Assembly (NCBI GenBank): GCA_038065495.1
Contig: JBBTQW010000002.1
Span: forward strand, 362,641-426,640
Source: Patescibacteria group bacterium
Lineage (GTDB): Bacteria > Patescibacteriota > Minisyncoccia > Phycocordibacterales > JACOZG01
Length of the DNA: 64,000 bases
Reading direction: 5' to 3'
Made by a program: the position numbers and the translations under genes. Each line of letters starts with the position of its first letter. Position 1 is the stretch's first letter. The notes under the pieces were generated by a model that worked only from the letters and a program-made list of their open reading frames with translations, was not told the DNA's origin and did not search any database. Below, one piece after another: positions 27,030 through 59,627 of the stretch.

Positions 27030-27060
27030 AAAAACCGTCCAACTGGACGGTTTTTGTTTT
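27030..27060. terminator. Bidirectional intrinsic terminator accgtcca-ac-tggacggt
   Basis: A-tract then 8-bp stem then TTTTTGTTTT. Confidence 0.7.
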
Positions 27061-27146
27061 GGTGCGCGGGAGAGGATTTGAACCTCCATGCCCTTGCGGG
27101 CGTTACCACCTCAAGGTAGTGCGTCTGCCAGTTTCGCCACCCGCGC
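27060..27146 (-). tRNA. tRNA-Leu (anticodon GAG), CCA encoded
   Basis: Reverse complement GCGCGGGUGGCGAAACUGGCAGACGCACUACCUUGAGGUGGUAACGCCCGCAAGGGCAUGGAGGUUCAAAUCCUCUCCCGCGCACCA. Long variable arm. Matches E. coli tRNA-Leu(GAG). Confidence 0.85.
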
Positions 27147-29238: not shown

Positions 29239-29312
29239 ACTGGCATTGTTCCAAAGGTCGGATCGAGGTGTCCCCGAGTCCGCGCTCTCGCAAGGGAGAA
29301 AAAATAGGGCAC

Positions 29313-29343
29313 GAGTGGGGCAATCCAGCCTCACTCTTTTTTA
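29313..29343 (+). terminator. Intrinsic terminator gagtggggc-aatcca-gcctcactc plus T6
   Basis: 9-bp stem with one G·U pair, then TTTTTT. Confidence 0.65.
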
Positions 29344-29363
29344 TTCTCTAAATCTAGAAAGTT

Positions 29364-29392
29364 TGTCAGAACTCACTTTCTCACTTATGCTG
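29364..29392 (+). promoter_or_regulatory. Promoter TTGTCA-N17-TATGCT upstream of tRNA-Val
   Basis: TTGTCAgaactcactttctcactTATGCTgg. Confidence 0.4.
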
Positions 29393-29416
29393 GAGGGGGA
29401 AGTAAGGAAATGTTTT

Positions 29417-29488
29417 GGGCGATTAGCTCAGTGGTAGAGCAGCGCTTTTACACAGCGAAGGTCAGGGGTTCAAATCCCTTATCGCCCA
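29417..29488 (+). tRNA. tRNA-Val (anticodon TAC)
   Basis: GGGCGAUUAGCUCAGUGGUAGAGCAGCGCUUUUACACAGCGAAGGUCAGGGGUUCAAAUCCCUUAUCGCCCA. Anticodon loop UUUACAC. Confidence 0.85.
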
Positions 29489-29537
29489 CATTTGACTTGG
29501 CTTGATTGGGGTTAGAGTCTCATGCTATAATCCCTAT

Positions 29538-29849
29538 GTGCCGTACAAACTCAAAAAGGACTTATACGAAGCACAGAAAAGACATCGCCTGCGAGTCAGG
29601 GAACAACTATTCGAGTACCTGTCGTCGAAGAGGTGTGTTGATTGTGGAGAGGATGATCCGGTGGTACTTGAGTTTGACCACGTTCGTCCAAGCAAAAAGT
29701 TTAAGCAAATATCCAAAATGCTTTCTGGCCACTATTCTTGGGCGTCGGTTCGGCGGGAAATTGCCAAGTGCGAAATAAGATGTGCGAATTGCCATAGGCG
29801 GAAAACTTATGTACAGTTGAAGTGTTTCGGAAGAAGCAAGCCCCTGTAG
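29538..29849 (+). CDS. HNH endonuclease (His-Me finger with CxxC...CxxC zinc site)
   Basis: CVDCGEDDPVVLEFDHVRP...KCEIRCANCHRRK. Internal extended -10 TGCTATAAT at 29523-31 suggests a leaderless GTG start. The track ORF begins at 29502. Confidence 0.6.
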   Translation: MPYKLKKDLYEAQKRHRLRVREQLFEYLSSKRCVDCGEDDPVVLEFDHVRPSKKFKQISKMLSGHYSWASVRREIAKCEIRCANCHRRKTYVQLKCFGRSKPL

Positions 29850-29911
29850 TTAAATGGATATAACTGCGGACTTCTAAGCCGCTATTCGAGGTTCGATTCC
29901 TCGCGGGGGCA
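29840..29911 (+). tRNA. tRNA-Arg (anticodon TCT)
   Basis: GCCCCUGUAGUUAAAUGGAUAUAACUGCGGACUUCUAAGCCGCUAUUCGAGGUUCGAUUCCUCGCGGGGGCA. Arg-type D-loop. Overlaps the last 10 nt of the HNH ORF. Confidence 0.8.
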
Positions 29912-29914
29912 CAA

Positions 29915-30241
29915 CTAGATCGACGGATCAGTCACTTTTTCTGGCGCAATCAAGAGTGTGTCAAGCTTAGCCTGGCGGGCAGATAATTCGTCACTGTATT
30001 TTTGCAATTCAGCACGGTTGAGCTTGGGTAGAGTAGAACTGGCAGAAATGATAGCCGGGTTTTCTGGATCATTGCTCAGATTATTTAAATAAGCAGGATA
30101 ATTATTGAGCTGATAGTTTAGCCAAGCGTAAACGGCAAGCAAGATAATCACGCAAGCGAGAGCCCCGGCCAGCAACCAACGCCAATCGCGCTCGGGTTGG
30201 AAGGGTGGTGGTTTGGGATTTTTTTTAAATAAACTAAACAT
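29915..30241 (-). CDS. Small single-TM protein, last gene of the pilM operon (PilP-like or pilus assembly accessory?)
   Basis: 108 aa. One TM helix WRWLLAGALACVIILLAVYAWL. Position downstream of pilO. Confidence 0.35.
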   Translation of the reverse strand: MFSLFKKNPKPPPFQPERDWRWLLAGALACVIILLAVYAWLNYQLNNYPAYLNNLSNDPENPAIISASSTLPKLNRAELQKYSDELSARQAKLDTLLIAPEKVTDPSI

Positions 30242-35109: not shown

Positions 35110-35181
35110 GCTCTCGTAGTTCAATGGATAGAACGCAGGTTTGCGGAACCTGCGATGTAGGTTCGATTCCTACCGAGAGCA
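35110..35181 (+). tRNA. tRNA-Arg-like (anticodon reads GCG; Arg-type D-loop)
   Basis: GCUCUCGUAGUUCAAUGGAUAGAACGCAGGUUUGCGGAACCUGCGAUGUAGGUUCGAUUCCUACCGAGAGCA. Perfect acceptor and T-arm. Anticodon loop UUGCGGA. Confidence 0.7.
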
Positions 35182-35182
35182 C

Positions 35183-35692
35183 ATGTTGTTTACTGGCAAA
35201 GGCGACAGTGGTGAGACGAGCTTATTTGGCTCTAGCGCTAGAATCTCCAAAAATTCGAGTAGAATACAAGCGTTGGGAAGTTTAGATGAGTTAAATTCTT
35301 GGCTCGGCGTGTGCAAGGCGAAAGCTGGCGCTGAAGTTCAGTCAGAATTAGCCGAAGTGCAACAGAATTTGTTTATTATTCAAGCTGAGCTGGCTGGCGT
35401 GCCAAAAAATATTGAAGAAAGTAAAGTAAAAAATTTAGGCGAGAGAGTAGAACAGATAGAAAAGCTCTTGCCAGCGATTCACACTTTTTTCCTCCCCGGC
35501 GGGAGCGAACTGGCCGCGCACTTGGACTATGCGCGCACGGTGGCTCGCCGGGCAGAGCGGTCGGTGATTGGCGAGAAACTTGGCGAATTCTCGCTGGCTT
35601 ATTTGAACAGGCTATCTTCGCTCCTCTATGCGCTGGCTCGACTAGAGAACCATAAGTCTGGTATAAAGGAGGAGAAACCTACTTACGAGTAG
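35183..35692 (+). CDS. PduO-type ATP:cob(I)alamin adenosyltransferase-like protein
   Basis: MLFTGKGDSGETSL...LGSLDELNSWLG, the signature of the PduO/MMAB family. Starts 2 nt after the tRNA. The track ORF 35141 overlaps the tRNA. Confidence 0.7.
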   Translation: MLFTGKGDSGETSLFGSSARISKNSSRIQALGSLDELNSWLGVCKAKAGAEVQSELAEVQQNLFIIQAELAGVPKNIEESKVKNLGERVEQIEKLLPAIHTFFLPGGSELAAHLDYARTVARRAERSVIGEKLGEFSLAYLNRLSSLLYALARLENHKSGIKEEKPTYE

Positions 35693-35729
35693 GCGAAGGG
35701 AGACACGCCAGCCCGAGGCTGACAAGCAT

Positions 35730-35794
35730 GGTGCCTATGGTGTAACGGTTAACACTAGAGATTGTGGATCTCTCAATCTGGGTTCGATTCCCAG
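35730..35794 (+). tRNA. tRNA-His (anticodon GTG) with G-1 and encoded CCA
   Basis: GGUGCCUAUGGUGUAACGGUUAACACUAGAGAUUGUGGAUCUCUCAAUCUGGGUUCGAUUCCCAGUAGGCACCCCA. Confidence 0.85.
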
Positions 35795-35858
35795 TAGGCA
35801 CCCCAAATAGAGGACGTTGGAATAATCGATGACTTTTTGAGTTTAAACTGTTAGAGTT

Positions 35859-55997: not shown

Positions 55998-57938
55998 ATG
56001 ATGGAAGGCGAAATTGGAAACGAGAAAGAGAATCGCTTAGAGCGTCTCAAGCGCTTGCTGTATGCGCGCCAGCGCGGGCTCAAGCCACTGCGGCGCTCGG
56101 GTTTGGAATCGAGAACCAACGAAACTCCCACCGCTTGGCGCCACGTGGAGCCGCTCAAGCTCGCCTCGAGTTTGCCTTCAACAAAGTTGCTCAAGAGAAT
56201 TCTCTGGTGGACGGCAGGATTCTTCTTGTTGGCGGCCGCGGTGGCGCTGTTTGTTTTTTATCGTGGTAATAATTTAATTTTAGCGAGCAATGTGGTGCTA
56301 AAAGTGACTGGGCCATTAGAAATTGCCGCTGGGCAGGAATTGAGTTTGCAGGTGGAGGTGGAAAATAAGAACAACGCCGCGCTGGAGCTGGCCGACTTGA
56401 TTGTGGAATATCCGAGCGGCACGCGCCAAGCTGGCGCGGTGGACAAAGCCCTGGCGCGGGAGCGCCTGCCGCTCGGCACGATCGCGCCTGGCCAGAGTGC
56501 GCGCAAGCTGGTACGCGCCGTGCTCTTTGGCGAGAAGGGGGCTCGCGTGCCAATCAAGTTGACGGTGGAGTATCGCCTGGCGCAATCAAGTGCGATTTTT
56601 GATAAAACGGAAAATTACGAAGTGACGATTGGCTCCACACCACTCTTGCTTTCGCTCAACGTTCCGGCGGAGGTAAATAGCAATCAAGAGATTTTGTTGG
56701 AAGTGGAAGCGCAGTCCAATGCCGAGAGCGTGATCACTAATCCAGTGTTGATCATGAGCTATCCGGCTGGCTTCCGGTTTATCCAAGCCACGCCGGTGCC
56801 CACGCGCGGCCAGAATATTTGGTCGCTGCCGTCGCTCAAGCCCGGTGCTCGTGCGCGAGTCCAGATCCGCGGGACGCTGGAGGGCCAAGATGACGAACAA
56901 GAATCCTTCCGCGCTGCGGCTGGTACAATCGAAACTGACACGGCGCTGGAGTTAGCCGCCACTTATGGTTCGGCTTTCGAGACTGTCACCATCAAGCGAC
57001 CGTTTGTGGGCCTAGACGTGGCACTTAATCAGAGCACGGCCAGCGAATATATTGCCGATAGCCGCGAGCCGGTGCGCGTGGATATCGGCTGGGTCAACAA
57101 CTTGCCTGGTGAGATCACCGCTGGCGAGATCCAAGCTACGCTGGCTGGCCGGCCGCTGGATCCCACCTCAGTTTCAGCACCAAAAGGTTTCTATAATTCC
57201 ACGCAGAACACGATTCTCTGGAATCAGACCAGTGATAGCAAGCTAGCGCAGATTAGCGCTGGTGATGCGGGGCAAATTTCTTTTACTTTTGCATCACTCT
57301 CACTCGTGAGTGCGGAGGGTGCGGCTTTGCGTCAGCCGGTCTTGGATTTAGTTGTTAAATTTAAAGGCAAACACTTAGACGACAATGGTAAAGCCGTCCC
57401 AGTTTATTCCGAAGTAAAACGCAAAATCAAATTTAGCTCAGCCGTGCAACTGGCGGCAAAAACGTTGCAACGCACTGGCGCTTTCACCAATCACGGACCA
57501 TTGCCGCCAAAAGTTGGCGCCGAAACTAGTTACACTATTGTGTGGTCAGTTCTCAACTCCGCTAATTCGCTTGACGCGGCGCAAGTCAGCGCCACTCTGC
57601 CGCCATATGTGCGTTGGCTGGGCGCCACTAAGCCAAGCAGTGAGACGGTCAAGTTTAGTGGCGCAGAATCCAGTGGTGGGGAAGTGGTCTGGCAATTGGG
57701 CCAAGTGGCACCGGGCACCGGCACGGCGGGGCCGGCGCGTGAGGTTTCCTTCCAAGTCGCGCTCACGCCGAGCGTGAGCCAGGTTGGCTCGGCGCCGGTG
57801 CTGGTGAGCGAGGCCACGCTCTCGGCCTTTGATACCTTTACCAAAGCCACTCTGACTGCTAAGCTCAAGCGGGCGCTGGATACGGTGCTGGTGAACGAAG
57901 CCGGCTTCCAGCTTGGCGAAGACCGCGTGGTTAAGTAG
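55998..57938 (+). CDS. Large membrane-anchored surface protein with repeated beta-rich (DUF11/CARDB-like) domains, hypothetical
   Basis: N-terminal basic cytoplasmic tail, one TM helix WWTAGFFLLAAAVALFVF, then about 570 aa extracytoplasmic. Very GC-rich. Confidence 0.45.
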   Translation: MMEGEIGNEKENRLERLKRLLYARQRGLKPLRRSGLESRTNETPTAWRHVEPLKLASSLPSTKLLKRILWWTAGFFLLAAAVALFVFYRGNNLILASNVVLKVTGPLEIAAGQELSLQVEVENKNNAALELADLIVEYPSGTRQAGAVDKALARERLPLGTIAPGQSARKLVRAVLFGEKGARVPIKLTVEYRLAQSSAIFDKTENYEVTIGSTPLLLSLNVPAEVNSNQEILLEVEAQSNAESVITNPVLIMSYPAGFRFIQATPVPTRGQNIWSLPSLKPGARARVQIRGTLEGQDDEQESFRAAAGTIETDTALELAATYGSAFETVTIKRPFVGLDVALNQSTASEYIADSREPVRVDIGWVNNLPGEITAGEIQATLAGRPLDPTSVSAPKGFYNSTQNTILWNQTSDSKLAQISAGDAGQISFTFASLSLVSAEGAALRQPVLDLVVKFKGKHLDDNGKAVPVYSEVKRKIKFSSAVQLAAKTLQRTGAFTNHGPLPPKVGAETSYTIVWSVLNSANSLDAAQVSATLPPYVRWLGATKPSSETVKFSGAESSGGEVVWQLGQVAPGTGTAGPAREVSFQVALTPSVSQVGSAPVLVSEATLSAFDTFTKATLTAKLKRALDTVLVNEAGFQLGEDRVVK

Positions 57939-57950
57939 GTTAGAAAATTT

Positions 57951-59627
57951 ATGTCAGAAAAAGAAAAACGAGATGCAAATTTATTAGAGAAAATCGTGTC
58001 GCTGTGCAAGCGGCGTGGTTTTATTTATCCCGGTTCGGAGATTTATGGTGGCTTGGCCGGCACTTACGATTATGGTCCACTTGGTGTGGCGCTCAAGAAT
58101 AATTTAAAAAATCTCTGGTGGAAAAACTTTGTAAGCAACAGAGAAGATATGTATGGCTTGGATGCCGCGATTATTATGAATCCCAAAACTTGGGAAGCAA
58201 GCGGTCACGTGGCTGGCTTTGCTGATCCGCTTATTGGTTGTTTAACATGTTCAGAAAAATTTAGAACGGATCATCTGATTGATACTAAGGCATTCAATGA
58301 ATATCGACTCAATTTGGTCAGAGAACATTGGAGAGAAATAATGGATGTATCAGAAAAAATGGTAACAGAAACCGAGGGTAATAAAGAATATCTTTCCAAA
58401 GTTGAGTCTGCCATTAAAGTTTTGGAGCAAAATAATTTACCCAAAGATATTGAAGAAATAATGGCCAGTGCATTGAAAGCCCATATGCTCGCTTCTGTAA
58501 GTAAGGCTAGGAAAAATCTAAAAGATCTGGTTGCAGAAATAAAACCAAGCGCTGCTCCTGAAGGATTTAGTGAGACTAAAAACTTTTCTGGTCATCTTAC
58601 TCAGCTCTTTCTTGCGGAGAATAAAATTAAATGTCCCAACTGTGGTTCCATCGAATGGAATGTTCCTTCACAATTCAACATGATGTTGAAAACAAATGTT
58701 GGTGTGGTTGATGATTTATCCTCAACCACTTACTTACGTCCAGAAACTGCTCAGGGCATGTTCGTTAATTTCAAAAATATTATCGATTCGTTCCACCCTA
58801 AACTGCCATTTGGTTTGGCGCAAATTGGTAAAGCTTTTAGAAATGAAATTGCTCCCAGAGACTTTTTATTTCGCACAAGAGAGTTTGAACAAATGGAAGT
58901 GGAATATTTTGTGAAAGCAGAAGATTGGCAGAAATATTTCGAAGAATGGCGCGTTCTAATTCAGAATTATTTTGCAGAAATTGGTTTAGATTCTAGTCAC
59001 GTGCATGAGTTAGAAGTCCCAGACGGCGATCGCGCGCATTATTCGGCGCGAACTATTGATTTCGAATTTGACTTTTCGTTTGGCAAAAAAGAATTATCAG
59101 GCTTGGCTTACAGATCTGATTACGATCTCAAGCAACATCAGGAATTTAGCAAACAAGATTTAACTTATTTTGATGAAGAAAGTAAAACCAGATTCTTGCC
59201 ACACGTAATTGAGCCTTCGCTTGGCTTAGATCGCATCTTGTTAGCTGTTTTAACAGATGCTTATACCGAAGATGAACTGGGTGGGGAAGCGCGGACTTAT
59301 CTGAAGTTAAATAAAAATATTGCGCCAGTGAGATTAGCTATTTTTCCACTGCTCAAGAATAAACCGGATTTAGTTAATAAAGCGCGCGAAGTTTATCAGA
59401 ATCTTAAAGTGCAAATGCCACATCAGACTGTCGTTTTCGATGACAATGGCAATATCGGCAAGCGTTATCGCCGGCAAGATGAGATTGGCACGCCACACTG
59501 CATTACTATTGATTTTGACACGCTCGGTGAAGGCGGTGAAGATAAAAAAGATACTGTCACGGTGCGCGATCGAGATACCGGCGAGCAGGAGAGGGTGAAA
59601 ATCTCTGAATTGACAAGTAAACTCTAG
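57951..59627 (+). CDS. glyQS: Glycyl-tRNA synthetase (alpha2 dimeric class II type)
   Basis: YPGSEIYGGLAGTYDYGPLG...class II motifs. 558 aa. Confidence 0.9.
   Translation: MSEKEKRDANLLEKIVSLCKRRGFIYPGSEIYGGLAGTYDYGPLGVALKNNLKNLWWKNFVSNREDMYGLDAAIIMNPKTWEASGHVAGFADPLIGCLTCSEKFRTDHLIDTKAFNEYRLNLVREHWREIMDVSEKMVTETEGNKEYLSKVESAIKVLEQNNLPKDIEEIMASALKAHMLASVSKARKNLKDLVAEIKPSAAPEGFSETKNFSGHLTQLFLAENKIKCPNCGSIEWNVPSQFNMMLKTNVGVVDDLSSTTYLRPETAQGMFVNFKNIIDSFHPKLPFGLAQIGKAFRNEIAPRDFLFRTREFEQMEVEYFVKAEDWQKYFEEWRVLIQNYFAEIGLDSSHVHELEVPDGDRAHYSARTIDFEFDFSFGKKELSGLAYRSDYDLKQHQEFSKQDLTYFDEESKTRFLPHVIEPSLGLDRILLAVLTDAYTEDELGGEARTYLKLNKNIAPVRLAIFPLLKNKPDLVNKAREVYQNLKVQMPHQTVVFDDNGNIGKRYRRQDEIGTPHCITIDFDTLGEGGEDKKDTVTVRDRDTGEQERVKISELTSKL

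Follow-up and report, generated by a model that had tools for sequence, protein, structure and literature searches.

HNH endonuclease genes have been described in linkage with transfer RNA (tRNA) arrays (PMC5966550, PMC6582537, PMC8421152), and those residing in phage arrays have been tied to diversification of the tRNA repertoire (PMC5966550). Here we analyze an HNH nuclease gene located immediately upstream of, and overlapping with, a tRNA-Arg(UCU) gene in a stretch of 64,000 nt of the Patescibacteria contig JBBTQW010000002.1. This stretch is called the window, and coordinates are window positions on the plus strand unless stated otherwise. Patescibacterial loci are referred to as CPR loci, and L-numbers (L006, L210 etc.) designate individual loci that were compared. 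Our finding elaborates the known theme of homing-type HNH genes in tRNA clusters. It identifies a widespread, highly conserved and mostly unannotated small Patescibacterial nuclease, the gene of which is inseparable from tRNA-Arg(UCU).

The product of gene gp102 of the cluster M mycobacteriophage PegLeg is homologous to the window protein (40% identity over 97% of the query, E=2e-15; PHROG 2255/3106/4234). Like the window gene, gp102 (57809-58258 of the phage genome) lies immediately upstream of a tRNA gene on the same strand, in this case tRNA-Met (58249-58324), and the two overlap by 10 nt according to the published annotation. The PegLeg type differs in belonging to a phage genome with large tRNA arrays, several HNH copies and various tRNA partners, and in a length of 149 residues. 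In contrast, the window gene is chromosomal, among genes for L19, RluA, PilM and RuvX, is single-copy, always has tRNA-Arg(UCU) as its partner, encodes 103 residues, and is preceded by a predicted leaderless promoter consisting of a GGGTTAGA box and an extended -10 element. In the same phage genome (L281, NC_021299), the gene for the hypothetical protein gp107 (58767-59089) overlaps tRNA-Leu by exactly 10 nt, and may be what is left of a cassette of this kind, or a relative of one.

Homing has been experimentally proven for SegB of phage T4, an endonuclease of a tRNA cluster that cuts in tRNA genes (PMC2330249). SegB is likewise a free-standing nuclease among tRNA genes, and its cleavage, which favours inheritance of itself and of the flanking tRNAs, provides a mechanistic model for the cassette (PMC2330249). 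It differs from the window protein in being a GIY-YIG rather than an HNH enzyme, in acting during lytic co-infection, and in that its activity has been shown, whereas that of the cassette is deduced; no overlap between an open reading frame (ORF) and a tRNA is reported for it (PMC2330249). In Anabaena, the HNH homing-type gene all8564 resides in non-phage bacterial DNA, where it is conserved just upstream of the L-array tRNA operon and co-regulated with it (PMC8421152). Unlike the window tRNAs, these arrays comprise up to 43 tRNAs, spread horizontally and are stress-induced, and neither a stop codon within a tRNA nor a leaderless promoter is described for them (PMC8421152). A tblastn search of 72,556 plasmid records with the window protein returned nothing, and thus no sign of close kinship with all8564. 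Within the same phylum, HNH nucleases of the same superfamily are associated with tRNA-Asn, but these are encoded inside self-splicing introns at anticodon-loop position 35/36, whereas the window gene is free-standing and located upstream of an uninterrupted tRNA (PMC13011429). A literature search yielded no description of a Patescibacterial HNH-tRNA-Arg cassette, of the stop-in-tRNA geometry or of the promoter box.

In the window, the HNH frame is open from TTG 29502 or GTG 29538 through TAG 29847-29849. In an alignment of 32 homologues, conservation begins at GTG 29538, where most relatives carry ATG-CCN-TAY-AAR. Because the relatives have an ATG at this position, we set the start at GTG 29538, resulting in an ORF (29538..29849) of 103 codons with a GTG start and a TAG stop, which was identified as a His-Me finger (HNH) nuclease gene by homologue alignment, PHROG matches and an AlphaFold model. 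The sequence-only reading had placed a 104-residue HNH protein 50 nt after tRNA-Val; the position holds (49-50 nt past the tRNA end), and the length is to be corrected to 103 residues. The ORF is not a chance frame, because it has 2324 database relatives and because mean pairwise identity by codon position is 0.72/0.83/0.43. Its order relative to the flanking tRNAs, tRNA-Val(UAC) at 29417..29488 (end 29488/9; Rfam 70.4 bits) and tRNA-Arg(UCU) at 29840..29911 (end 29911/12; Rfam 60.5 bits), was as originally read, with ARAGORN and Rfam in agreement on both tRNAs. Both tRNAs are intact and there is no intron at the locus, so that the gene is free-standing.

The ORF and tRNA-Arg(UCU) share exactly 10 nt (29840..29849). 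The last three codons (aaG CCC CTG) and the TAG correspond to acceptor-stem positions 1-7 and to U8-A9-G10 of the tRNA, so that the stop codon is at tRNA positions 8-10. The claim that the HNH stop lies within the first 10 nt of the tRNA was thereby confirmed, since both predictors place the tRNA 5' end at 29840.

In order to compare loci, we fetched 80 of them from species-representative genomes, 58 Patescibacterial and 22 from other bacteria. The names on the Patescibacterial loci fall in several NCBI candidate phyla. tRNA-Arg(UCU) was found directly 3' of the HNH gene and on the same strand in 56/56 CPR loci not cut by a contig end (of 58), and is the invariant partner of the gene. tRNA-Val(UAC) was located upstream on the same strand in only 7/57 loci, including the window, and elsewhere downstream, on the opposite strand or absent; it is a neighbour outside the conserved cassette. 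Judged by these comparisons, the conserved unit is the GGGTTAGA box, the extended -10 element, the stop-less ORF and tRNA-Arg(UCU). It is not a Val-HNH-Arg unit transcribed from a single promoter in front of tRNA-Val, as the sequence-only reading had proposed, and the HNH gene has a promoter of its own that is much better conserved.

The exact 10-nt overlap was present in 33/57 loci, and an overlap of at least 1 nt in 45/57. Positions 8-10 of the tRNA were TAG in 55/55 tRNAs, and the two or three C-terminal residues of the protein track the acceptor stem (GCCCCTG gives PL, GCCCTCG gives PS, and GTCCCCG gives SP). The HNH ORF lacks a stop codon of its own, and U8-A9-G10 of the tRNA supplies one. 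Four loci (L006, L007, L011 and L032) have a 28-nt spacer between HNH gene and tRNA, which begins with TAG-TATATT and follows a fossil "...TTG-TAG" mimicking the tRNA 5' end. The arrangement has the appearance of a duplication of the tRNA 5' end, by which ORF and tRNA were uncoupled and through which the tRNA may have gained a new -10 box.

No excess synonymous conservation was detected anywhere in the ORF in the CPR alignment, and hence no conserved internal promoter or hidden RNA element. A candidate tRNA-Arg promoter inside the ORF (TTGCCA-17-TACAGT, 29789-29817) was rejected, as it is not conserved in relatives. Since there is no intergenic space in 45/57 loci and no conserved internal promoter, co-transcription of tRNA-Arg with the nuclease mRNA is the parsimonious assumption, in line with the earlier suggestion that the tRNA would be processed out of an mRNA encoding the nuclease. 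A scan of the window found no predicted terminator between tRNA-Val, HNH gene and tRNA-Arg.

The best promoter-like site in the region scanned was TTGATT-18-TATAAT (10/12), in which a TG precedes the -10 hexamer. The region contains 5 promoter-like sites, compared with 2.1 ± 1.3 in shuffled sequences. Because about two such sites are expected, one consensus match carries little weight by itself, and the HNH-proximal promoter is supported by comparative conservation alone. Positions were counted from the first base of the start codon, and conservation was calculated for the 41/55 loci with modal spacing. The GGGTTAGA box occupies -29 to -22 (conserved to 85% at -29 and to 95-100% at -28 to -22) and is followed by TG at -15/-14 (93-98%), TATAAT at -12 to -7 (88-100%) and CC at -6/-5 (93-100%), while the -35 region (around -35) is not conserved. 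In the window, the box, which was delineated by comparison of 41 loci, is located at 29509..29516 in the promoter spacer, and the extended -10 promoter TGCTATAAT at 29523-29531 (29523..29533 with the conserved CC). Altogether, conservation in the 30 nt before the start codon far exceeds that of synonymous sites.

The -10 hexamer is found at -12 to -7 from the start codon in 41/55 CPR loci, and likewise in the phage sisters L082 and L083 described below. With this spacing, the expected +1 is the first base of the start codon, and the HNH mRNA, with its transcription start so deduced, should be leaderless, which supports the idea already raised from the window alone. The arrangement GGTTAGA...TAYAAT was present upstream of the HNH gene in 41 loci but had no other occurrence in the 64-kb window or in approximately 316 kb of CPR loci, which marks it as an element specific to this gene rather than a type of promoter in general use. 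The GGGTTA and TAATCC arms form an imperfect inverted repeat, and this conserved box, which overlaps the promoter, could be an operator for autoregulation. An RNA hairpin of the type GGGGUUA/UAAUCCC does fold, but was discarded (z=-1.55, not significant, with nearly invariant arms). As regards translation, Shine-Dalgarno-like motifs were present at the first start codon of 1/52 non-overlapping ORFs (at least 150 aa) in the window, compared with a background of 4.7% in random 15-mers, which suggests that initiation is largely Shine-Dalgarno-independent in the window's organism.

The protein itself has the features expected of a His-Me finger nuclease that is stabilised by zinc and catalytically intact. 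Profile searches for HNH domains, which had been proposed as a check, gave a divided result. Pfam HNH (PF01844) aligned with residues 33-90 of 103 at 19.3 bits, below the gathering score of 21.4, whereas three PHROG families of HNH endonucleases matched strongly (E=1.8e-24 for phrog_2255, 3e-20 and 1.5e-15); one relative (P0024) carries a precomputed PF01844 match. Searches of NCBIfam and of PDB sequences with the window protein returned nothing. The motifs CxxC...DHV...CANCH, noted at the outset, are present and invariant in relatives. The predicted zinc ligands C33/C36/C82/C85, the catalytic D47-H48 (codons 29676-29681) and N84/H86 of the C82-A-N-C-H86 motif (codons 29781-29795) belong to a total of 40 invariant columns in the homologue alignment, which include all cysteines, the D-H pair and the CANCH motif. 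In the AlphaFold (AF2) model (predicted local distance difference test score, pLDDT, 87.6), a long basic N-terminal helix is followed by a beta-beta-alpha-metal core with D/H on strand 1, N/H on the helix and the CxxC...CxxC zinc ligands in place. The best true structural neighbour of the model was the Gme HNH nickase 4h9d.

The 2324 relatives in the protein search are clusters at 90% identity. Nearly all of the best 120 have approximately 103 residues and are 64-77% identical to the window protein, and where named, they are from Patescibacteria. A genome scan found a relative in at least 539 species-representative genomes. Relatives with 40-55% identity are also encoded by at least 586 viral contigs, and 317 annotated phage genomes encode relatives, with phages of Mycobacterium (123), Streptomyces (44) and Pseudomonas (31) forming the largest groups. 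A same-strand tRNA within 60 nt downstream was found in 56/58 CPR, 11/22 other bacterial and 38/80 viral loci. In the wider family, an overlap of the same 10 nt was seen with tRNA-Pro, Met, Lys, Thr, Gly and Arg. A stop-less nuclease ORF ending on the near-universal U8-A9-G10 of a tRNA is thus a recurrent architecture across phages and several bacterial phyla. The adjacency of the family to tRNA genes in phages supports the homing-endonuclease-type ancestry proposed for the window gene.

The nearest outgroups of the CPR clade were three predicted viral contigs with 53-58% identity. One of these phage sisters, L082, has GGGTTAGAAT-ATGG-TATAAT-ATCCTT-ATG upstream and also the GGGTTAGA box. The stop codon of its ORF, TAA, coincides with positions 8-10 of a tRNA-like element that lacks a D-arm and has a UCU anticodon, and the neighbouring genes are those of a phage-type nucleotide-metabolism module (thymidylate synthase, dNMP kinase and a second HNH gene). 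In another sister, L083 from a 96-kb contig, tRNA-Arg(UCU) is immediately upstream of a similar promoter. Because promoter box and tRNA linkage are shared with L082 and L083, the comparison indicates that the whole cassette predates the CPR clade and is common to phages. The tRNA-like element of L082 (3309-3386 of that contig) also contains a long variable-region insertion; it was missed by ARAGORN and scored 30.5 bits with Rfam, just above the gathering score. A likeness of GGGTTAGAAT to the tRNA T-arm (7/10 matches) was estimated by hand to be compatible with chance and was dropped.

Homologues with about 50-58% identity were also observed directly upstream of a tRNA-Pro(UGG)-led cluster in Eremiobacterota-type and other non-CPR loci (L059, L060, L065, L066, L079, L080, and L078 in inverted form). 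In most of these loci the cluster continues with Arg(UCU)-His-Lys, and in four the homologue overlaps tRNA-Pro by 10 nt. These tRNA-Pro-linked genes may represent a second, independent lineage of long-term residents.

The CPR genes bear marks of long-standing constraint. The ratio of non-synonymous to synonymous substitution rates (dN/dS) was 0.05-0.25 in the 14 pairs with dS < 1.5, and dS was saturated in 1237/1378 pairs (approximately 90%). A tree of 161 family members showed strict monophyly of the 59 CPR sequences, with 66% identity within the clade and 41% to the remaining family. The window gene, a single copy there, is flanked by chromosomal housekeeping genes confirmed with Pfam (PilM, L19, an RluA-type synthase and RuvX; a PilO assignment is a sub-threshold match), and the window tRNAs are isolated and not arrayed according to ARAGORN. 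In 18-36 loci, PilM-like, PilN-like, PilO-like, L19 and RluA proteins are again encoded close to the cassette, in two orientations. Over one and the same set of genome pairs, mean identity was 68-70% for HNH, 55% for L19, 46% for RluA and 20-29% for pilus-cluster proteins. Mantel correlations with host markers were weak (0.10-0.27 for four markers and -0.05 for L19), which inspection of extreme pairs attributes to a plateau of identity and not to discordance. The closest hosts have the closest HNH pairs (L008-L016, with L19 0.97 and HNH 0.95; L020-L023; L026-L028; L007-L011), and among the loci compared there was no pair with near-identical HNH genes and divergent neighbours. Judged by these comparisons, descent of the cassette looks mainly vertical.

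In spite of this constraint, the cassette is dispensable, as comparison of loci has shown: it has been lost several times and it can decay. A single metagenome scan was made, with a tRNA-body pattern that avoids positions 1-10 and is not CPR-specific. An HNH gene was located upstream in 6/72 evaluable tRNA-Arg(UCU)-like loci. The 66 "empty" loci were mostly phage arrays or from other phyla, and we used only those with CPR-like tRNAs or flanks. About 14 of them were clearly CPR-like, with tRNAs that share 82-99% identity with HNH-linked ones (0.89 or more in 13/14) and/or PilM-like or RluA flanks; they include L210, L214, L232, L229, L183 and L168. In L210, tRNA-Val and tRNA-Arg are 3 nt apart with no HNH gene, and the PilM-like protein shows 66-68% identity to its counterparts in L006 and L032, two loci with the order Val-HNH-Arg. 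On a tree of PilM-like proteins, empty and occupied loci are interspersed at the level of lineages. Decay was seen in L219, a fossil comprising the last 19 codons alone (E=2e-5), in L058, which is 5'-truncated with an in-frame stop and the invariant H65 changed to Q, in L055 (frameshifted) and in L024 (premature stop). The sequence-only reading had set presence/absence polymorphism, as expected of a selfish element, against conservation at the position under purifying selection. The polymorphism was found, yet the position is conserved under purifying selection as well, and the comparative data place the truth between the two readings, that is, with an ancient, constrained and mostly vertical cassette that can still be lost. 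The system is thus a natural one for asking how a homing-type gene keeps long purifying selection and yet stays dispensable.

Some further observations concern empty sites. Approximately 140 nt upstream of tRNA-Arg in L232 (position 10039 of that locus) there is an anticodon arm like that of tRNA-Arg (cggacttctaagccg), and 34 nt upstream of tRNA-Arg in L229 (position 3239) a 3' end resembling tRNA-Val. These tRNA-like fragments may be scars of rearrangement or cassette loss. L233 contains a distant member of the HNH family (39% identity, E=2e-12) on the opposite strand, 280-480 nt upstream of an otherwise empty CPR-like tRNA-Arg(UCU).

We favour the reading, with a probability of roughly 55%, that the locus is a compact, free-standing homing-type HNH cassette of phage ancestry, fused to tRNA-Arg(UCU), which has become a long-term and mostly vertical resident of Patescibacteria (Parcubacteria-type). 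RNA polymerase would start at the first base of the start codon and produce a leaderless HNH mRNA continuous with pre-tRNA-Arg, and the tRNA, having no separate conserved promoter, would be matured from the HNH transcript. If RNase P cuts at tRNA position 1, the mRNA would lose its stop codon together with the three codons before it. Only unprocessed transcripts would then yield full-length protein, and processed ones would be non-stop mRNAs; RNase P processing and translation termination are predicted to be mutually exclusive on one transcript. Such competition would keep the nuclease low and tied to tRNA transcription. Presumably, the nuclease cleaves DNA in or close to tRNA-Arg(UCU) loci that lack the cassette, and repair would copy the cassette in. 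Selection for homing cleavage would explain purifying selection despite dispensability, and small genomes would delete decayed copies fast, leaving clean empty sites. The conserved promoter box, if it is the operator, would make the nuclease autoregulatory. The homing endonuclease I-TevI represses itself by binding an operator that overlaps its own promoter. In mitochondria, mRNAs are delimited by tRNA processing (tRNA punctuation), start at the start codon without a leader, and lack a complete stop codon after processing. Both cases can be likened to the cassette only as analogies.

Several points weigh against a homing-type resident. The HNH protein is more conserved than L19, which is not usual in a gene that is purely selfish and agrees with a function at the level of the host. 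There was no positive sign of horizontal spread within the CPR clade, judged by monophyly, host-congruent tips and saturated dS, although the loci are short and the power is limited, and no member of the CPR clade was found in viral contigs above 54% identity. Decayed copies are few (about 4/63). The tRNA-Arg genes at the empty sites L214 and L232 are 99% identical to the window tRNA-Arg, so a target wholly inside the tRNA would also exist in occupied genomes. The absent Shine-Dalgarno motif was rejected as evidence for a leaderless mRNA, since the motif is rare throughout the window. DNA cleavage, target site, transcription start and processing are all inferred. A domesticated host gene, i.e. 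an immobile nuclease or nucleic-acid-binding derivative serving the cell, accounts for some of these points and is a possible, though distinctly less probable, explanation. It would fit the higher conservation compared with L19, RluA and pilus-cluster proteins, the low dN/dS with saturated dS, strict monophyly with host congruence at the tips, the putative gene-specific promoter/operator, the single copy in the window and the absence from viral contigs at clade-level identity. Another point in its favour is the report of a tRNA-Arg(TCT) gene in a phage of Patescibacteria (bioRxiv 10.1101/2024.03.08.584096). The role might be regulation tied to expression or processing of tRNA-Arg(UCU), or defence against phages with tRNA-Arg(UCU) clusters, and nuclease synthesis would be coupled to the tRNA precursor via the common 3' end. 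Yet repeated losses of the gene have occurred, some of them in sister lineages, the tRNA is its only conserved partner, the phage sister L082 already has both the promoter box and the tRNA fusion, so that these are not host innovations, and the phage relatives behave as array-resident mobile genes. A bolder form of domestication, which we regard as rather improbable, is a self-regulating mRNA-tRNA fusion. Termination at the junction of acceptor stem and D-arm would compete with RNase P, the output would report on or feed back to tRNA-Arg(UCU) maturation, GGGTTAGA...TAATCC would be the operator of the nuclease itself, and the enzyme would serve the host, e.g. by cutting phage DNA at phage tRNA-Arg(UCU) loci. 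If this were true, the cassette would be a widespread and previously unrecognised Patescibacterial accessory system and not a selfish gene.

Two other explanations fare worse than the homing-type cassette. The order Val-HNH-Arg in the window with no predicted terminator between the genes, the same order in six other loci, and the empty Val-3 nt-Arg junction of L210 could be taken to mean that a selfish HNH gene recently inserted between tRNA-Val and tRNA-Arg of one operon, with a single promoter upstream of tRNA-Val and the tRNA genes as integration target. This is very unlikely, and comparison across loci largely refutes it: most loci have tRNA-Val downstream or on the opposite strand or lack it, a conserved extended -10 promoter belongs to the HNH gene itself, and saturated dS and monophyly indicate that the insertion is ancient. 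Conservation at the position and purifying selection argue against a recent or sporadic insertion in general. There is no integrase and no intron at the locus, and the target-site duplication that had been suggested as a check was not found around the cassette, where repeats of 9-17 nt were at chance level. Patescibacterial tRNAs often hold group I introns, and four of those in tRNA-Asn encode HNH proteins (PMC13011429), which would be compatible with an ORF belonging to a group I intron or another structured RNA tied to a tRNA. For this locus such an origin has next to no probability and is refuted by the complete and canonical flanking tRNAs, by a sensitive Rfam scan of 29300-30000, in which the two tRNAs alone were found, and by the lack of synonymous or structural constraint in the ORF.

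The architecture also has a bearing on annotation. Gene callers extend the N-terminus into the promoter ("...CYNP...") and flag the gene/tRNA overlap as an error, while promoter and overlap are real features of the cassette. Further upstream, the tRNA-Val gene is preceded by a promoter-like site (TTGTCA-17-TATGCT, 29363..29391; a 9/12 consensus match alone), which is the single promoter of the sequence-only reading and whose linkage to the HNH unit is not conserved, as the position of tRNA-Val varies, and before it a terminator-like hairpin with a T-run (29313..29346; consensus scan alone) would close the preceding unit.

Two observations were made elsewhere in the window. A second tRNA-ORF-tRNA unit is found at 35110-35805, where tRNA-Arg(GCG) (35110-35181) is followed by a cobalamin adenosyltransferase ORF (35183-35692; Pfam Cob_adeno_trans, E=9e-44) and by tRNA-His from 35731. 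The ATG of the ORF (35183) is 2 nt past the discriminator base of tRNA-Arg(GCG), and 3' processing of this tRNA would leave a nearly leaderless cobalamin adenosyltransferase mRNA. On the minus strand, an 87-nt tRNA-like gene with a long variable arm was detected at 27060-27146 (Rfam tRNA, 45.8 bits), for which ARAGORN reported a 2-nt anticodon (tg) in a 6-nt loop and the assignment tRNA-?(Gln|Ser).

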